6,511 bases of DNA from a virus (IMGVR_UViG_2541047126_000018); one strand, 5' to 3'; shown: positions 323-6,236, counted from the stretch's first letter. The notes: generated by a model from the sequence alone, not told the origin. Translations and numbers: made by a program.

Positions 323-1721
323 ATAGCGGCGCTACATCATCCCCATCGATACGAATAACCCCATCTTTTTCCAGCTTGTACAGCCAGCGCCGGAAGTTTT
401 TCATTTCATACCCCAGCTTTTTCATGTCATCACGTAACAGCGGGATCGTGCACTTGTCGCCGTTCTGTGTGCGTGAACGGATGCACCCCCATAGCGCGGT
501 ATGGTTTTCCGTCTTGTTCCCTGCCTCCTCGATGCGCTCCAGTTCAACAGGAGGGCGCGGATCATCCACCACCACCAGCAACGTGATTAATTCACCGTCA
601 GCGTCGGTAAAAAGCTCCACCACGCGTAAGTCATATGCGGCTTCTTTGAGTTCCTCCGCGTCCTTCATTTTGGTGCATGAGATAACCAGCGCTTCGCTTC
701 CTGCGTCCTCCCTGCGTATCCGGTATTCAGCATCCAGCGAAGCACGAAATGCACTGGAACCGCGCGCGCCTTTCGTCTCATCCTTGCCGGAATGGTGAAC
801 CACCAGCACCGTGGCCCCTGTGCGTCGTTTCAGTTCGTCACAACCACGGATAAACGCCCCCATATCACGGGAATCATTTTCATCATTCCCACCAAAGCAA
901 CGCGCCAGCGTATCCAGAATAATCATGCGTACAGGTTTACCCGTTTCCCGCTCCACCTGACGGGCAGCGATAACCATTTCATCAACATCAAGCGGGGCAG
1001 CCGGAAAGATGGGGCGGTTTACCAGATACAGATTTTTCACCTGCTCATCGTGCACAACCTCCCAGGCTTTTACACGACGCGGAACACCTATACCGCCTTC
1101 ACCAACCACATAGAGAACCGCACCATGTGCAACCCTGCGGCCTCCCCACTGGCGACCAGTGGCAACATGGCACGCCCACGATCCGGCAAGGAATGATTTA
1201 TAGGACCCGCTAGCCCCGTATATGCTGCATAGCGATACCGCCGGAATAATCCCCTTAACCACGTAATCCAGTTGCGTGTCGTATCCGGTAGATCCAACGC
1301 TCATCGGTAGCGTGGTTTTTCGCTGGTGGTTTTTTTCTTCCGCCGGCTCTTTCCCGCGCACCCGTTCCAGGTATTCGCGCCAGTTCTCCCGCATATGGCT
1401 GTGCATCCCTTCGGGGTAATAATTCGCATCAGTTACACCCGCCGCCGCCAGCTTGTGCGCAATGGCATTAATATTTGATGGCCTGATGTGGCCTGCCTTG
1501 TACAGCCGGACACAATAGCGCCCCTCGTCGATGATTCTCAGTTCTGCCAGTTCATCCAGTTGATCATCAGCCAGCACAACGGGAGGCACATTATCGCCAG
1601 CCAGTCGCCCGTCCTGTTCCTGCCACTGTTTCGCATGTGCCCAGGCATCACTACCCGCAAAAATAATGACTTCGGTCATCTTGTCGTAAGGCTGTTTTTT
1701 TAAGTTCGGTGCGCTTTTCAT
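321..1721 (-). CDS. Replication protein, RecA-fold (AAA_25 / RepA-like) helicase-type ATPase with an N-terminal domain of unassigned type
   Basis: 466-aa ORF; deviant P-loop GASGSYKS, Walker B-like VRMIILD, and VLVVHHSGKD resembling the HH..K motif of RepA/DnaB-like RecA-fold ATPases; SD AGGGG about 7 nt before the ATG; ATGA overlap with the upstream ORF; iterons immediately downstream. Family assignment is from motif recall, not a search. Confidence 0.8.
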   Translation of the reverse strand: MKSAPNLKKQPYDKMTEVIIFAGSDAWAHAKQWQEQDGRLAGDNVPPVVLADDQLDELAELRIIDEGRYCVRLYKAGHIRPSNINAIAHKLAAAGVTDANYYPEGMHSHMRENWREYLERVRGKEPAEEKNHQRKTTLPMSVGSTGYDTQLDYVVKGIIPAVSLCSIYGASGSYKSFLAGSWACHVATGRQWGGRRVAHGAVLYVVGEGGIGVPRRVKAWEVVHDEQVKNLYLVNRPIFPAAPLDVDEMVIAARQVERETGKPVRMIILDTLARCFGGNDENDSRDMGAFIRGCDELKRRTGATVLVVHHSGKDETKGARGSSAFRASLDAEYRIRREDAGSEALVISCTKMKDAEELKEAAYDLRVVELFTDADGELITLLVVVDDPRPPVELERIEEAGNKTENHTALWGCIRSRTQNGDKCTIPLLRDDMKKLGYEMKNFRRWLYKLEKDGVIRIDGDDVAPL

Positions 1722-2017
1722 TTCTTGCCCCTGAATCCGTTAACCATGGTTTTCAGCTTCTGGATGTTTGCCCGTGCCCTGGCGTTGCTGGTGGGCACGT
1801 TATGCGGCGCGGTCTGTACCAGAGAAAAATCACGCCGGAACTGATAAACAGGCATCACGCAATCATATTCGTAACCTTCACGGCGGTAGGTTACGCGCCG
1901 TTCTTCCACGCCCTTAATCATTACCGTGCCGCCGTACTGGTCGCGGTAAATATCACCGCGCGTAAATTTAGGGTGAGTGTTGCCACTGGCAGTTAAGCCA
2001 GAATATTTAAGTTTCAT
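1718..2017 (-). CDS. Hypothetical protein, 99 aa, translationally coupled to rep
   Basis: Complete ORF; GGAGA about 9 nt before the ATG at 2017; its stop overlaps the rep start (ATGA at 1718-1721). No motif recognised. Confidence 0.6.
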   Translation of the reverse strand: MKLKYSGLTASGNTHPKFTRGDIYRDQYGGTVMIKGVEERRVTYRREGYEYDCVMPVYQFRRDFSLVQTAPHNVPTSNARARANIQKLKTMVNGFRGKK

Positions 2018-2022
2018 TATTT

Positions 2023-2256
2023 TTATTCTCCGGTGTGCTGTTCTTTATATCTGTCGTGCAATAGATCTATTTCTTGCAGTTCCATTATTACAGGCTCAAG
2101 AAGCGTTATTAATGCCGTGGCAATTCTTGATTTTTGTTTGTCGCGTTCATTGTCGCCAAGTGTTTCAAGCCATATGCGCAATATTTCCATCATGTTTTCA
2201 CTGTGAGAAAGTGCAAGAAATGCGCGGTCTATTGTTTGGTGGTAAATATCACGCAT
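2023..2256 (-). CDS. Hypothetical protein, 77 aa, predicted helical
   Basis: Complete ORF; GAGGA about 8 nt before the ATG at 2256; start overlaps the stop of the upstream 154-aa ORF by 8 nt. Confidence 0.55.
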   Translation of the reverse strand: MRDIYHQTIDRAFLALSHSENMMEILRIWLETLGDNERDKQKSRIATALITLLEPVIMELQEIDLLHDRYKEQHTGE

Positions 2257-2713
2257 GGCTTACATCCTCAGGAAATTTTCTTCTATAACGCGCCTCTGCC
2301 ACATATTCCGCATAATCGGCGGCGATATTCAGTACATCAAGCCCCGTTGATTTATATTCTCTCGTGGAAAGTAAGAAAAAAGCCGCTCTAATAAGTTCTG
2401 GCATTGACGAAAGCGCATCAGCCGCATCATCAGGAACGCCGGAAAATTCCTGTTTCAGGGAATTAAAACGATCATCACGCATAACCCCCCCATTTTCACA
2501 ATCAGCAATCAGGATAGCTTTGGCCTCATTCAGCGCCGTATCAGCACTAAATTGCATGACAGCCAGTGAGTGAGGAACGAAAGCACCGGCATATTCTGTT
2601 TCGCTGGTGGCGTGCTTATGTGCCCTGTCCGCGATAACAGAAATATCAATCAGCGCGTGCATCAGCGTTTTGATGGCTTCGGCGGCTGCGTCCGGTGTGG
2701 TTTTATTGTGCAT
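2249..2713 (-). CDS. Hypothetical protein, 154 aa
   Basis: Complete ORF; AGGGGA about 7 nt before the ATG at 2713; overlaps the upstream ORF by 11 nt; position before the replication gene recalls the small genes preceding the replication gene in P4-like elements, but no homology is claimed. Confidence 0.65.
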   Translation of the reverse strand: MHNKTTPDAAAEAIKTLMHALIDISVIADRAHKHATSETEYAGAFVPHSLAVMQFSADTALNEAKAILIADCENGGVMRDDRFNSLKQEFSGVPDDAADALSSMPELIRAAFFLLSTREYKSTGLDVLNIAADYAEYVAEARYRRKFPEDVSHA

Positions 2714-2915
2714 AAAGCATCCCCTGAATATTCGTGTTAATCATTCCGGCACGTTTTGTGATTTCCTGTAATGATTCCCTTGTGGCGACAATTGCTTCAT
2801 CTGGTAAGTGGTAATTACACACCACGCGACCTTTATCCACATTGACCAGTAGCTGCCCTGTGAATTTCTCACGAAACTGAATGCGGTTAAGGTCAGTAAG
2901 TGACAGATTAATCAT
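2703..2915 (-). CDS. Hypothetical protein, 70 aa (start moved to the internal ATG at 2915)
   Basis: Track ORF 2703..2957 trimmed: the ATG at 2915-2913 has a consensus SD AGGAGGTG 4 nt upstream and sits 2 nt after the stop of the upstream ORF (ATGATTAA junction); the 2957 start has no SD and would overlap the upstream gene by 50 nt. Confidence 0.6.
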   Translation of the reverse strand: MINLSLTDLNRIQFREKFTGQLLVNVDKGRVVCNYHLPDEAIVATRESLQEITKRAGMINTNIQGMLYAQ

Positions 2916-3111
2916 GGCGCACCTCCTGACGAATACGGGCGGCAAATACAGCAACACAACCTGACGGGCAACGGCTACGCGCTTCGCGTTCCGTCCAGGC
3001 GGTTACGTGGATGATTTGAGATTCTCCGGCACTCAGGGCCAGAAAACGCCAGATGTATTTATTCAGGTTGTGCGAGTCCCGCCCTTGCGGGTGTGTGGTA
3101 TGATTTAACAT
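2908..3111 (-). CDS. Hypothetical protein, 67 aa, first gene of the replication-side operon
   Basis: Track ORF 2908..3606 trimmed to the internal ATG at 3111-3109 with GAGGT SD; the longer version would run through the divergent promoter region and the RHH gene on the other strand. Confidence 0.5.
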   Translation of the reverse strand: MLNHTTHPQGRDSHNLNKYIWRFLALSAGESQIIHVTAWTEREARSRCPSGCVAVFAARIRQEVRHD

Positions 3112-3190
3112 AGCTACCTCGATACTGTTGCTATCGTTGGTTGTTAGACGCCCTGCATGTGTGCCACCACTGCGGGGCGTTGTTATTTGG

Positions 3191-3301
3191 TGCATCGCAC
3201 CATCTGTTTTTAACCTATCAGCAAGTGAATCGCACTTCAAGCCTTTTCTCTGAATTTTTTTTGTGTATACTGAATCGCACCAACTTAGAGAGGATTCAGT
3301 A
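3191..3301. promoter_or_regulatory. Divergent promoter/operator region between the RHH gene (+) and the small-gene/rep operon (-)
   Basis: Three direct copies of the 10-mer TG(A/C)ATCGCAC at 3191-3200, 3226-3235 and 3271-3280; plus-strand -10-like TATACT at 3266-3271; candidate minus-strand promoter TTGAAG (plus 3235-3240) with 17-bp spacer to TAGGTT (plus 3212-3217); inverted repeat CTGAATC/GATTCAG (3269-3275 / 3293-3299) flanking the RHH SD. Confidence 0.4.
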
Positions 3302-3481
3302 ATGGCAACAGGTTCAACAAATAATAAGTCGCAACAGTTAAATGCCAGATTCCCGCATGATGTTGTTGCAGACTTAGAAAAAAATTTAGATGAAGGTGAA
3401 AGCAAAGCGCAATTTATAGTTACTGCCGTTAAAGGCGAAATCAAACGCCGCCAGCGCCGCAAGGCCAAAGAGCAGGAATAG
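3302..3481 (+). CDS. Ribbon-helix-helix (CopG/Arc/MetJ-type) DNA-binding regulator, 59 aa
   Basis: ATG at 3302 with SD AGAGAGGA 7 nt upstream (the track's 3263 start is a GTG without SD); the segment QLNARFPHDVVADLEKNLDEGESKAQFIVTAVKGEIKR fits the beta-strand/helix/helix RHH pattern; basic C-terminal tail; only plus-strand gene in the element. Confidence 0.65.
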   Translation: MATGSTNNKSQQLNARFPHDVVADLEKNLDEGESKAQFIVTAVKGEIKRRQRRKAKEQE

Positions 3482-3569
3482 CCCACCAGCAAGCCAGCAC
3501 ACTGAGCACATTGCCCACCAGACAGCAAATCGCTATGATGTTCGGGCTTATGTTTAGTGTTTTCCCATT

Positions 3570-3598
3570 GGCGACCGCCACAGGTCGCCTTTGTTTTA
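3570..3598 (+). terminator. Rho-independent terminator downstream of the RHH gene
   Basis: Stem GGCGACC (3570-3576) / GGTCGCC (3583-3589), loop GCCACA, followed by TTTGTTTTA (3590-3598). Confidence 0.55.
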
Positions 3599-3615
3599 TG
3601 TGTCATATGTTCCCC

Positions 3616-3840
3616 CTACGCTGCCTTACCTGAATTAATACGATCCCGGCTTTTAACCCATTCCATAACCTCGGAAAGCAGCCAACCTACTGAACGACCA
3701 CCCAGATTACGGCGTGACGGGAAATTCCCTTTTTTCTCCAGTTCGTAGCGTGTAGTGCGGCACACTCCTGTTAACTTACGGCATTCATCCTCACGGATTA
3801 CGCGATCTGATAGTGATTGAAATTGTGTATTTTGATTCAT
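3616..3840 (-). CDS. alpA: AlpA-family (MerR-like HTH) prophage transcriptional regulator / excision activator
   Basis: 74-aa ORF; segment CRKLTGVCRTTRYELEKKGNFPSRRNLGGRSVGWLLSEVMEWV matches the AlpA HTH signature (...GxSRST.Y.L...G.FP.P..LGGRSV.W...EV..W...) from memory; located downstream of a P4-type integrase. Confidence 0.8.
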   Translation of the reverse strand: MNQNTQFQSLSDRVIREDECRKLTGVCRTTRYELEKKGNFPSRRNLGGRSVGWLLSEVMEWVKSRDRINSGKAA

Positions 3841-3875
3841 AAAAAAACGTCCTCGAACGTTGCCGAACGAGGACG
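3841..3875 (-). terminator. Terminator/attenuator-like hairpin plus U-tract between the cargo gene and alpA (minus-strand sense)
   Basis: 8-bp stem CGTCCTCG (3848-3855) / CGAGGACG (3868-3875) with 12-nt loop; on the minus strand it is followed by 7 U (plus A7 at 3841-3847) and then directly by the alpA ATG (3840); the GAGGA in the 3' arm is the only SD-like element for alpA. Confidence 0.5.
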
Positions 3876-3902
3876 ATTCTAGGCGGTAGTAAAACGCCGT
3901 TT

Positions 3903-3935
3903 GTGTGATATCACACTACCAGCACGTGATATCAC
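3903..3935. promoter_or_regulatory. Paired palindromes, candidate operator in the cargo-alpA intergenic region
   Basis: Perfect 14-bp palindrome GTGTGATATCACAC (3903-3916) and second copy of the core GTGATATCAC (3926-3935), the latter overlapping the cargo stop codon; minus-strand -10-like TAGAAT (plus 3876-3881) nearby. Confidence 0.4.
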
Positions 3936-4705
3936 TTTTTACGTTTTTGTTGAGATTCACGCCCCAAATACTTTTGCCATGTCTGCCAATGTGTTTTTGG
4001 AAATTCTATCCCTCTGGATGCAGCTATAGAATCAATTAAATCTGCTATTTTAGGTAATGATTCCGTGTCCAGGTCTACATCACCCATTTCTGGAATAAGT
4101 TTAATTAAAGAGTAAATAACCTCATTCCTTTTTGACGATGCTTTTGGGCTATCTTCTGTTATCTTCGGGAAGTCTCCCGTATTTTTTATATTATCTAAAT
4201 CACTAGCCATCACACACAAATAGTTAACATCAAATTCATAACCACCCTTACAAAAAACATACATGAGATTATCATCACCATACTTATTCGTAAGATGAGA
4301 ACATTTTATATATTGTCTCATGCTAAATTCGACATCAGCAAAAACATATGCCGGAGTATAATAAAACCCTGATAAGCTGCTAACATAATAACATTTGATA
4401 GAATTCCCTACAGGACCAATAATGGCACTATCTAAAAATTCAGTGTCACCAGTTAAACCAACTGTAAAATTACTTCCAAAAACAGCAGATTCATCATTGA
4501 AAGGATATTTTATTAATTCTTCCTCATTACAACCATTGATAAAATGACATAATGAAAAATTGAATTTTTTAGCATCAATTTTTGGTATATATACAGAAAT
4601 ATTAAGAGCACCTATATATGCGTAATGATAAAGATCTTTTATTGCACAGCCTAACTTTTCTGCCGCTTCAGGTAACGGATAATAGAGTCTTTTAGGTAAT
4701 TTCAT
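3932..4705 (-). CDS. Hypothetical low-GC cargo protein, 257 aa, translationally coupled to the integrase; candidate accessory/defence gene
   Basis: Complete ORF; ATG at 4705-4703 overlaps the int stop TGA (4704-4702) as ATGA, with SD GAAGGTGG inside the int 3' end; GC by eye about 30-35 percent versus about 50 percent in int and rep; no catalytic motif recognised; terminator follows. Confidence 0.8.
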   Translation of the reverse strand: MKLPKRLYYPLPEAAEKLGCAIKDLYHYAYIGALNISVYIPKIDAKKFNFSLCHFINGCNEEELIKYPFNDESAVFGSNFTVGLTGDTEFLDSAIIGPVGNSIKCYYVSSLSGFYYTPAYVFADVEFSMRQYIKCSHLTNKYGDDNLMYVFCKGGYEFDVNYLCVMASDLDNIKNTGDFPKITEDSPKASSKRNEVIYSLIKLIPEMGDVDLDTESLPKIADLIDSIAASRGIEFPKTHWQTWQKYLGRESQQKRKK

Positions 4706-5925
4706 TTGGCCACCTTCAGCATAACAATATTTTCATGATTTCCAGCCAGCACATCGAGGCGCTCAACCCATAGATTAAGAGCGTCACGTTTTGCATCAAG
4801 ATAACGGGAGTGATTATAGACTCGTTGCATTCCTGGCAACTGGTGCGCGGTAAGCTGCTCCACAACATGCGGTTCCACGCCTAAATCGTTCAGCATCGTT
4901 GTAAACGTGTGCCGGATGTCGTGCAACGTCCAGGGGGCTTGATTAATGCGTCTGTGTGCCGTTCTTCCGTACTCTGATACGGATGATTGCCCTTTCAGTT
5001 CTCCGAGCAATAAGCCCGTGTGCCTGTTCTGCTCCACCAGCTTCATGACAAACGGCAAGATCGCTTCCGGTATTGGCCTGAATATTGCTACCTTCGTTTT
5101 GCTGTGTTCTTTCGGCACGGTCCAGAGCATTTCTTTAAAATCCCATTCCTGGACCTCAGAGCGTCTTAGCTCAGTGGTACGACATCCGAAGACAATCAGG
5201 AGGCGAATCAGGGCGCTGTAGTACGGTGGGTAAATTTTTTCATCAAGGGCGCGTAGTAATTCCCCAAGCTCCTTGTTTGTTAGTACGCGCTCGCTTATTT
5301 CTGCTTTTTTCCCAACATCACCGACAACCATATCATCAAGAACGTTGCTGATTGCGTATCGTCGTTTTCGGCAGTACTTAAGCGCCTGTTTGCATACCTG
5401 TAGCAAAAATCCGGCTGATACCGGATTACGCTTAGCAAGCTGGTCAAAACAGGCCAGCCAGTGGCGTAGCTCGCATTTTTCCAGTGGCATAGCTCCAATC
5501 TGGCTAATTATGTGTTTATTGATCCGGCTTTTCAGTGATTCGTAGTCAGTGCGCTTTTCCTTTGCGTACGATTCAAGCCAGTAAGTGAGCGCTTCCTTAA
5601 CCGTCACGGGGGCTAACGCGTCCTGTACAGCATGATTAAGTTCATAGCGCGGATTTTTCCCCTCAGCCAGCCATGCGCGACATTGCGACGCTTTTTCCCT
5701 GGCTGCTTTCAGGCTCAAATCTGGATAATTTCCCAGCCTCAGACGTTCAGGTGATATCTGCCTACCAGTTCCGGACCTGTAAGTGAAATACCAGGTTAAC
5801 AGGCCATTGGTTGAATGCCTTACGCTAAGGTTGCCACCATCATTAAAAAAGGTGCTTTTTGTGGTTGGTGATCCGCTTAATTTTCGTAAAAGAGTGTCGC
5901 TAAGTCTATGAATTGCCCTGCTCAT
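4702..5925 (-). CDS. int: Tyrosine recombinase / integrase, P4 family (DUF4102-type N-terminal arm-binding domain)
   Basis: 407-aa ORF; N-terminal NDGGNLSV...LGNYPDLSLKAAREKA matches the DGGGLYL...LG.YP..SL..AR pattern of P4-type integrases; box I-like CRTTELRRSEV; box II LHDIRHTF...LTAHQ...RVYNHSRY with the catalytic Tyr candidate. Confidence 0.93.
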   Translation of the reverse strand: MSRAIHRLSDTLLRKLSGSPTTKSTFFNDGGNLSVRHSTNGLLTWYFTYRSGTGRQISPERLRLGNYPDLSLKAAREKASQCRAWLAEGKNPRYELNHAVQDALAPVTVKEALTYWLESYAKEKRTDYESLKSRINKHIISQIGAMPLEKCELRHWLACFDQLAKRNPVSAGFLLQVCKQALKYCRKRRYAISNVLDDMVVGDVGKKAEISERVLTNKELGELLRALDEKIYPPYYSALIRLLIVFGCRTTELRRSEVQEWDFKEMLWTVPKEHSKTKVAIFRPIPEAILPFVMKLVEQNRHTGLLLGELKGQSSVSEYGRTAHRRINQAPWTLHDIRHTFTTMLNDLGVEPHVVEQLTAHQLPGMQRVYNHSRYLDAKRDALNLWVERLDVLAGNHENIVMLKVAK

Positions 5926-5946: not shown

Positions 5947-5974
5947 AAATTAACTACACCATTGACTACACCGT
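5947..5974 (+). repeat. Direct repeat A1 (AAATTAACTACACCATTGACTACACCGT) containing two ACTACACC octamers 12 bp apart
   Basis: Read directly; ACTACACC at 5953-5960 and 5965-5972; near-identical copy at 6179-6206. Confidence 0.8.
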
Positions 5975-5988
5975 GCATCGTACAAGGG

Positions 5989-6236
5989 CGAACTGTGACG
6001 AACAAGGGCGAACAAGAAAAACGAAATTATCCTTTATAATCATAGAAATAAATTAGATGCCCACACCATGACGAACACCCACGAACACTAACTGATAAAT
6101 AACTATCATTTATAACATTTCATTGATTAGTCTTTATTTTTCACTATGTTACAAATAACAACTCCGTCAAAAACAGCGAAATTAACTACACCATTAACTA
6201 CACCGTTTCACGAACAATATCGAACAACCACGAACA
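5989..6236 (+). repeat. Eight same-orientation CGAAC(A/T) sites in three clusters with 10-bp phasing; candidate integrase arm-type sites or iterons
   Basis: CGAACT at 5989; CGAACA at 5999, 6009, 6072, 6082, 6211, 6221, 6231; within each cluster the spacing is exactly 10 bp; a 12-mer ACAAGGGCGAAC is duplicated at 5982 and 6002. Confidence 0.75.
6179..6206 (+). repeat. Direct repeat A2 (AAATTAACTACACCATTAACTACACCGT), second copy of A1, 232 bp downstream
   Basis: Read directly; ACTACACC at 6185-6192 and 6197-6204; followed by the CGAACA triplet at 6211-6236, the same arrangement as A1 plus its triplet. Confidence 0.8.

Follow-up and report, generated by a model that had tools for sequence, protein, structure and literature searches.

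The 6,511-nt stretch of viral DNA IMGVR_UViG_2541047126_000018, hereafter the window, carries five small open reading frames (ORFs), orf1 to orf5, which run as a chained block into a replication gene, rep. A tyrosine integrase gene (int), alpA and rep all lie on the minus strand with the small ORFs between alpA and rep (Table 1), the arrangement that marks Gram-negative phage-inducible chromosomal islands (PICIs). The element is an E. coli phage satellite of the PICI/capsid-forming PICI (cf-PICI) family; the co-orientation of int, alpA and the RepA-type rep, together with the cf-PICI relatives, bears out the first-pass annotation of this DNA, which had called it a phage satellite from the sequence alone. 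The block was matched in 1814 of 5426 complete E. coli genomes (about one third), and a search of phage DNA left it without match. Islands of O157:H7 (EcCIEDL933 type) are 99.8% identical to the window at the nucleotide level over 1700-3051 and have the same five ORFs. In RefSeq relatives, inserted between cspD and clpS, the arrangement continues into genes for SSB, PerC, major capsid, prohead protease, portal, head-tail connectors, HNH, TerS and TerL, the gene set of the published cf-PICI architecture with EcCIEDL933 as prototype (10.1101/2022.09.08.507074). The window ends about 320 bp past rep, and the full packaging set is known from islands with a near-identical operon and RepA (locus L001); the left arm (int, a 257-aa gene, alpA and ylcI) is found on classical PICIs too. 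The block is ordinary, already annotated in RefSeq and near-identical to that of the best-studied cf-PICI, and the classification of the element is unaffected by the findings reported here.

Table 1. Genes and other features of the window, in order along the small-ORF block and then outward from it.
Feature	Position	Strand	Remarks
orf1	2908-3111	minus	67 aa
orf2	2703-2915	minus	70 aa
orf3	2249-2713	minus	154 aa
orf3 N module	2483-2713	minus	
orf3 C module	2249-2482	minus	own ATG at 2480-2482
poly-G tract (G7, coding strand)	2485-2491	minus	junction of the two orf3 modules
orf4	2023-2256	minus	77 aa
orf5	1718-2017	minus	99 aa
rep	321-1721	minus	466 aa
leader hairpin	3148-3180	minus	conserved; followed by a C/A-rich tract (3127-3147), then the orf1 Shine-Dalgarno sequence
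candidate sigma-70 promoter	3212-3240	minus	-35 TTGAAG (3235-3240), 17-nt spacer, -10 TAGGTT (3212-3217)
repeat O1	3270-3280	minus	GTGCGATTCAG, next to the ylcI promoter
repeat O2	3225-3235	minus	GTGCGATTCAC, within the promoter spacer
repeat O3	3190-3200	minus	GTGCGATGCAC, just 3' of the -10
ylcI (YlcI/YnfO family)	3302-3481	plus	59 aa; NF041551, E=1.5e-17
alpA	3616-3840	minus	PF05930 Phage_AlpA, E=3.4e-16; upstream of the operon, same orientation
tyrosine integrase (int)	4702-5925	minus	

The coordinates and lengths first given for the five ORFs were reproduced exactly when recomputed. All five and rep start with ATG, and successive genes are joined by an 8-nt overlap (ATGATTAA, orf1/orf2), an 11-nt overlap (orf2/orf3), a second 8-nt overlap (ATGCGTGA, orf3/orf4), a 5-nt gap (orf4/orf5) and a 4-nt overlap, ATGA (orf5/rep). 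The junctions had been described as overlaps or gaps of 2-6 nt; the overlaps stand, while the gaps reduce to the single one of 5 nt. Every start is preceded, as claimed, by a G-rich Shine-Dalgarno sequence (SD) 5-10 nt upstream (GAGG, AGGAGG, AGGGG, GAGGA, GGAG and AGGGG for the six starts), those of the downstream genes sitting within the 3' end of the preceding ORF. The view of one overlap-chained block leading from the divergent promoter region into the replication gene also holds, and no terminator-like site that would interrupt it turned up from 3111 to 321 on the minus strand. We compared 18 loci, twelve gene by gene and six more by profile searches, and the overlap and SD pattern of a translationally coupled operon is kept in the twelve as well; stop/start overlaps are present along the chain, and translation of each downstream ORF would depend on that of its neighbor.

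Given their short length, the lack of a Pfam family for three of them and the poor structure models, the ORFs might be taken for chance frames, and the stretch for a long 5' leader to rep. This view is effectively refuted: all five match PHROG families (E from 1e-23 to 3e-92), the ORFs are intact in the twelve loci without a single internal stop, and an SD precedes each ORF in all loci. The exact orf2-orf5 proteins each occur on at least 1000 contigs, and RefSeq annotates all five ORFs. Pairwise ratios of nonsynonymous to synonymous substitution rates (dN/dS) across the twelve loci are 0.32-0.45 for all five, well below 1, as under moderate purifying selection. Stops or frameshifts among related elements had been named as evidence that would count against these genes, and by this check the ORFs are not refuted; the one recurrent frameshift seen lies in a poly-G tract of orf3, and both halves stay intact ORFs.

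The first gene of the operon, orf1, is by sequence a member of the Icd/Kil family. It scores 65.1 bits against NF033153 (phage_ICD_like; cutoff 25, E=4.4e-18), a model with which P1 Icd scores 52.6 bits and P4 Eta/Kil 73.9 bits, in the latter case over the C-terminal 48 residues of Eta (85-132), and which also matches the C-terminus of a 324-aa Klebsiella cf-PICI protein. The direct comparison of orf1 with P1 Icd gave a BLASTP match at E=3e-7 (39% identity, 49 aa), and in an alignment of 14 sequences from PICIs, P1, P4 and the Klebsiella cf-PICI residues F23, A38, E41, A44 and R45 are invariant. The dN/dS of orf1 is 0.38, and its exact protein, ERE00787.1, is recorded on one contig. A CPSGC pair had been put forward as a possible metal ligand in this protein; such a site is unsupported because the cysteines are not conserved, Cys48 giving way to Ser in P4 Kil and in one group of PICI alleles and to Leu in P1 Icd, and P4 Kil having Tyr in place of Cys52. 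Division inhibition or killing of the host cell upon expression is known for P4 Kil (PMC10111431) and, from a note in the P1 record, for P1 Icd. Icd/Kil is the sole member of the operon with an experimentally grounded family function, the target of which is the host cell and not the helper, and by analogy with its relatives orf1 most likely arrests host division upon island induction.

Two other readings of this gene were rejected. The PHROG label "transcriptional repressor" (phrog_6196, phrog_1743) appears to be an inherited mislabel, most likely descending from the Eta/Kil reading frame of P4, once annotated as a coding sequence under the name "cI gene product", although P4 CI proper is an RNA (PMC10111431). 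A 232-aa ORF in frame with orf1 (2908-3606) looks like an over-extension; it runs antisense through ylcI and has a Cys-rich, low-complexity N-terminal part; this long form is annotated "Icd-like" in some database entries.

At the other end of the block, orf5 matches Pfam DUF4222 (PF13973) over all 53 model positions with 85.7 bits, against a gathering threshold of 27 (E=1.6e-24), so that the initial statement that none of the five proteins shows a motif that could be named fails for both orf1 and orf5. For orf2, orf3 and orf4, searches returned no Pfam family and no sequence relative in PDB, their PHROGs being of unknown function; in PDB searches with profiles or sequences, neither YlcI nor any of the five ORFs had a match below E=0.3. 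The AlphaFold model of orf5 displays a five-strand SH3/Tudor-like barrel (residues 23-68; predicted local distance difference test, pLDDT, 78-86) followed by a basic helix. The protein most likely works with the replication initiator or sets its expression. A genome scan for DUF4222 relatives added two further species only, Shigella flexneri and E. albertii, since the peptide patterns used were strict. One DUF4222 tblastn match lay in a phage where it is annotated "putative protein YmfM", a lead that was dropped: K-12 YmfM compares with orf5 at E=9.5, has no DUF4222 domain and shares with orf5 position alone, just upstream of the replication gene. YmfM is the division inhibitor of e14.

The replication gene itself matches PF13481 AAA_25 (E=2.5e-43) and phrog_2850 (E=1.5e-266) and is named "helicase RepA family protein" in RefSeq, i.e., a RepA-type replicative helicase. 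Just 3' of its stop, within 133-322, CTCACTTT occurs in four direct copies, with starts at 133, 146, 229 and 314, and once inverted at 257; these copies are candidate origin iterons.

Among the middle ORFs, orf2 (phrog_340, E=1e-23) is present in 5 of the 12 loci, other small ORFs standing in elsewhere. Its Pfam matches are sub-threshold (EFG_C, SCO4226-like) and PDB gave no sequence match; the name "DUF4242/SCO4226-like" carried by some relatives was set aside, as scores of 13-16 bits fall short of the cutoff of 28.5 and orf2 is not a member. The small helical protein encoded by orf4 (phrog_2196, E=1.2e-42) occurs in 11 of the 12 loci, two very divergent alleles included, with a dN/dS of 0.45.

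The third ORF is, judged from its sequence relatives, a fusion of two helical modules of about 75 aa. While phrog_2512 spans all of orf3, phrog_5146 covers residues 1-73 and phrog_24341 residues 78-154; residues 1-76 and 78-154 occur mainly as separate proteins of about 75 aa, both in PHROGs and in a search of 1.84 billion representative proteins, where the 62 matches to orf3 were mostly single modules. The AlphaFold2 model, of low confidence (pLDDT 54), consists of two helical hairpins and a disordered linker, and the N module has a dN/dS of 0.32, the C module one of 0.38. In an alignment of 10 loci, the length of the poly-G tract at the junction sets whether the modules are fused or split: G7 gives the single 154-aa ORF (window and L008; also the O157 islands), G8 splits it into ORFs of 79 and 73 aa that share 8 nt, ATGCGTGA (L009-L011, L013), and G9 gives 86 + 73/77 aa (L001, L007, L016), and in L012 the tract is short and the N module is replaced by a different upstream ORF. 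A G10 state would account for an extra Gly in the fused ORF of some database proteins. The ATG of the C module lies two bases past the run in every state. Each state is present on hundreds to at least 1000 contigs, so the variation in tract length is genuine and does not stem from sequencing errors, and this polymorphism could be used to probe what the two modules do. The junction sequence ATGCGTGA(T), with a downstream protein starting MRD, is shared by the orf3N/orf3C and orf3/orf4 boundaries (2249-2256, 2480-2487; loci L009-L013) and may serve as microhomology for cassette exchange.

The order of the block is maintained in all 18 loci: an Icd-like gene, then one to five small ORFs, then a DUF4222 gene of 95-99 aa and a 4-nt overlap into the replication gene, and this applies alike to replication genes of the RepA helicase, D5_N/DUF5906 primase and DUF927 kinds. 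Islands exchange their middle ORFs, with overlapping junctions and SDs retained.

Upstream of orf1, 190 bp separate it from the divergent ylcI, a stretch alignable across eight loci. It holds a candidate sigma-70 promoter from which, as far as its sequence can tell, transcription of the operon may start; the -35 TTGA(A/C) and its position are kept in the eight aligned loci, the spacer sequence being variable. An 11-bp repeat occurs at three fixed positions and each allele group has its own version: GTGCGATTCA(G/C) and GTGCGATGCAC in the window, GTGCAAGTCAC in L007, CTGGAATCCAG in L013 and GTGTGTTTCAG in L015. The window and L012 are near-identical in ylcI, repeats and leader (~3100-3483), yet the two AlpA proteins share only 61% identity, and the loci have different integrases and insertion sites. 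The repeats thus go together with ylcI and not with alpA. All three are candidate operators.

YlcI has the Arc-like motif N-x-R-F-P-x-D-V (pattern N-x-R-[FW]-P-x-[DE]-V), and four of eight homologues weakly match the ribbon-helix-helix family PF07704 (best E=0.008), which makes YlcI a putative ribbon-helix-helix protein that would repress the operon. A terminator-like site for ylcI lies on the plus strand at 3570-3589. The combination of a small divergent regulator with operator-like repeats over the promoter of the replication operon resembles the divergent Stl/Str repressor switch known from Gram-positive PICIs (Staphylococcus aureus pathogenicity islands, SaPIs), although the 59-aa YlcI, with its putative fold and its presumed repression, is unrelated to Stl. 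Gram-negative PICIs have been described as AlpA-activated, with no repressor known (PMC6092414), and ylcI with its repeats suggests a portable repressor/operator unit, besides AlpA, in some of them, a question left open by that 2018 description.

Between promoter and orf1, the leader hairpin is supported by compensatory double changes in 6 of 9 pairs (RNAalifold, eight loci) and by a single-sequence fold z of -2.5, and matched no Rfam family. In P1 icd and in P4 kil are controlled by a C4/CI antisense RNA (CI/seqA in P4); Rfam searches matched neither C4 (RF01695) nor isrK (RF01394), with a threshold of E<=1 for the whole window and E<=10 for 2850-3900.

AlpA is needed to induce EcCICFT073 and EcCIEDL933 (PMC6092414; 10.1101/2022.09.08.507074); in EcCICFT073 it switches on the PICI genes downstream, and growth suffers if induction is uncontrolled (PMC6092414). 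The scan found alpA and the operon separated by no minus-strand terminator, and read-through from alpA is therefore possible, in agreement with that activation.

Taken with the poly-G variation and the exchange of middle ORFs, the ylcI region raises a bolder proposal, in which the operon is a diversifying array of effector cassettes set between two anchors and aimed at helper, host or rival functions, reshuffled at ATGCGTGA(T)-type junctions, toggled between fused and split forms by the poly-G tract and governed by a portable YlcI repressor/operator module independent of alpA. We consider it tentative and rather improbable as a whole; if true, it would add a repressor layer to the AlpA-only model of Gram-negative PICIs.

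Comparison with known systems places the block more closely. EcCIEDL933 shares with the window the five ORFs, their order, the overlaps and the RepA helicase, and the sequences part upstream of about codon 20 of orf1: in the O157 islands ylcI is missing and an Ash/Eta-like N-terminal ORF runs in the same direction as alpA, whereas the window has the divergent ylcI and the three operator-like repeats. Integrase, attachment site (cspD-clpS) and the 257-aa accessory gene differ as well. The left operon of P4 consists of vis, eta/kil (with the CI RNA), epsilon, orf151, orf106 and alpha, and like the window it has an AlpA-like gene upstream, an Icd/Kil-domain protein first, small ORFs next and a replication gene last; both its kil/eta-epsilon and epsilon-orf151 junctions are 8-nt overlaps. 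The Kil domain is a stand-alone 67-aa protein in the window and the C-terminal part of Eta in P4, and the replication protein is a RepA helicase in the former and a primase-helicase in the latter. In P1, a plasmid prophage and not a satellite like the window element, the immI operon comprises c4 RNA, icd and ant1/2 and continues to kilA and repL; icd and ant1 share 4 nt, and according to the record ant is not expressed unless icd is translated. An Icd homologue in first place and a chained design toward the replication gene are common to P1 and the window, but no c4-like antisense RNA or target sites and no Ant homologue were detected in the window. A survey of E. cloacae satellites lists genes of the Icd-like type for most elements of the P4-like, PICI and cf-PICI groups and assigned them no function (PMC13612085).

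It is this parallel with the P4 and P1 operons that had led the first-pass annotation to suspect helper-directed factors among the small ORFs. In such a module a derepressor or hijacking factor that binds a helper protein would be encoded by at least one of orf2-orf5, by analogy with P4 epsilon binding the P2 C repressor and P1 Ant binding C1, and indeed the gene that follows the Icd/Kil homologue in P4 and P1 is an (anti)repressor antagonist, the middle ORFs are swapped like specificity cassettes and dN/dS is moderately high at 0.32-0.45. Nonetheless, none of the five ORFs matched the epsilon family PF25738 at E<=0.1 (P4 epsilon scores 170 bits), nor the Ant, Bro-N, KilA-N or Rha domains of Pfam; direct comparisons with P4 epsilon, orf151 and orf106 gave at best E=0.02 (orf5 with the orf151 N-terminus) and E=0.008 over 22 aa (orf3 with epsilon), not significant among about 35 comparisons. 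The helper prophages in the cf-PICI papers were induced by mitomycin C, and EcCIEDL933 left helper reproduction unreduced (10.1101/2022.09.08.507074), while known PICI signalling runs from helper to alpA and not the reverse (PMC6092414). A helper-manipulation module is, on balance, unlikely.

A module for abortive infection or superinfection exclusion, with a toxic Icd-like effector restrained until a phage trigger and protecting the population, appears a little less probable still. Support for it comes from ECOR61, where six linked genes, an Icd-like gene and a DNA primase gene among them, must be co-expressed for growth arrest, with the Icd-like protein as likely effector; arrest follows expression of phage orf24 and is lost without the Icd-like gene (10.1101/2023.04.06.535777). 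PICIs are also known carriers of defence genes. Yet orf1 lacks the long N-terminal extension of the ECOR61 protein, the arrest observed there may be mere satellite induction, no PADLOC model matched orf1-orf5, rep or ylcI at E<=0.1, and the block is tied to replication, away from the known defence hotspots of these islands.

We favor instead, with a probability of about 60%, the view that the block is an ordinary early operon, a single transcription unit in which the Icd/Kil and DUF4222 genes are anchors around an exchangeable middle. Transcription would begin in the 190-bp region shared with ylcI, or reach the operon by read-through from alpA, giving on induction a single polycistronic message that continues unterminated into the RepA-type helicase gene, with the stop/start overlaps passing translation from ORF to ORF. 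The first anchor would most likely halt host division on induction, and the last, joined by ATGA to any of the replication genes, would be made in step with the helicase. The growth arrest in ECOR61, the closest precedent from experiment, and the activation of downstream PICI genes by AlpA speak for this view as well. The middle cassettes (orf2, the two orf3 modules and orf4) probably act on host, helper or competitor functions, as their position is that of epsilon, orf151 and orf106 in P4 and of ant in P1.

Several observations weigh against parts of this view. The -10 of the candidate promoter is weak and was not called by a consensus scan, and the comparison of YlcI with Arc by hhalign reached E=0.0075 at 5% probability, a weak ribbon-helix-helix signal. 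The EcCIEDL933-type (O157) islands lack ylcI, so that a YlcI layer is not general, and with no C4/CI antisense RNA found, regulation differs from the P1 and P4 models. The identity between orf1 and P1 Icd is just 39% and limited to the 49 aligned residues. Confidence in the structure models is low for orf3 and moderate for orf5, and their fold matches are generic. Finally, the cf-PICI papers characterise int, alpA, rep and the packaging genes, and give the small ORFs no role (10.1101/2022.09.08.507074).

Although the block itself is routine, three points give it some value: the possible repressor layer formed by ylcI and its operator-like repeats, the fused/split polymorphism of orf3 at the poly-G tract, and the Icd/Kil kinship that connects PICIs with P1 and P4. 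Since orf1 connects PICIs to P1 icd and P4 kil, an Icd/Kil gene followed by small ORFs and a replication gene emerges as a unit common to a plasmid prophage, P4-like satellites and PICIs, and the link supplies a testable first function for the region, i.e., host division arrest on induction.

Some features of the left arm complete the picture. Directly before the alpA start (3840) lies a terminator-like hairpin (arms 3845-3855 and 3868-3878) with a U7 run, whose 3' arm contains the GAGGA SD of alpA; just upstream, two exact GTGATATCAC palindromes, 21 bp apart (3905-3914 and 3926-3935), are the sole exact copies in the window. This hairpin/palindrome region may be the site of helper-dependent control of alpA. 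The interval between int and alpA in PICIs often holds accessory or defence genes, and here it is occupied by the 257-aa ORF (3932-4705, minus strand, 31-39% GC), to which Pfam, PHROG and PADLOC gave no assignment; identical copies of the protein are very widespread among E. coli cspD-clpS islands with differing small-ORF cassettes and replication genes. A direct repeat of about 27 bp, AATTAACTACACCATTRACTACACCGT, beside the integrase gene (~5947-5973 and ~6179-6205) probably represents integrase arm-type sites near the attachment site.

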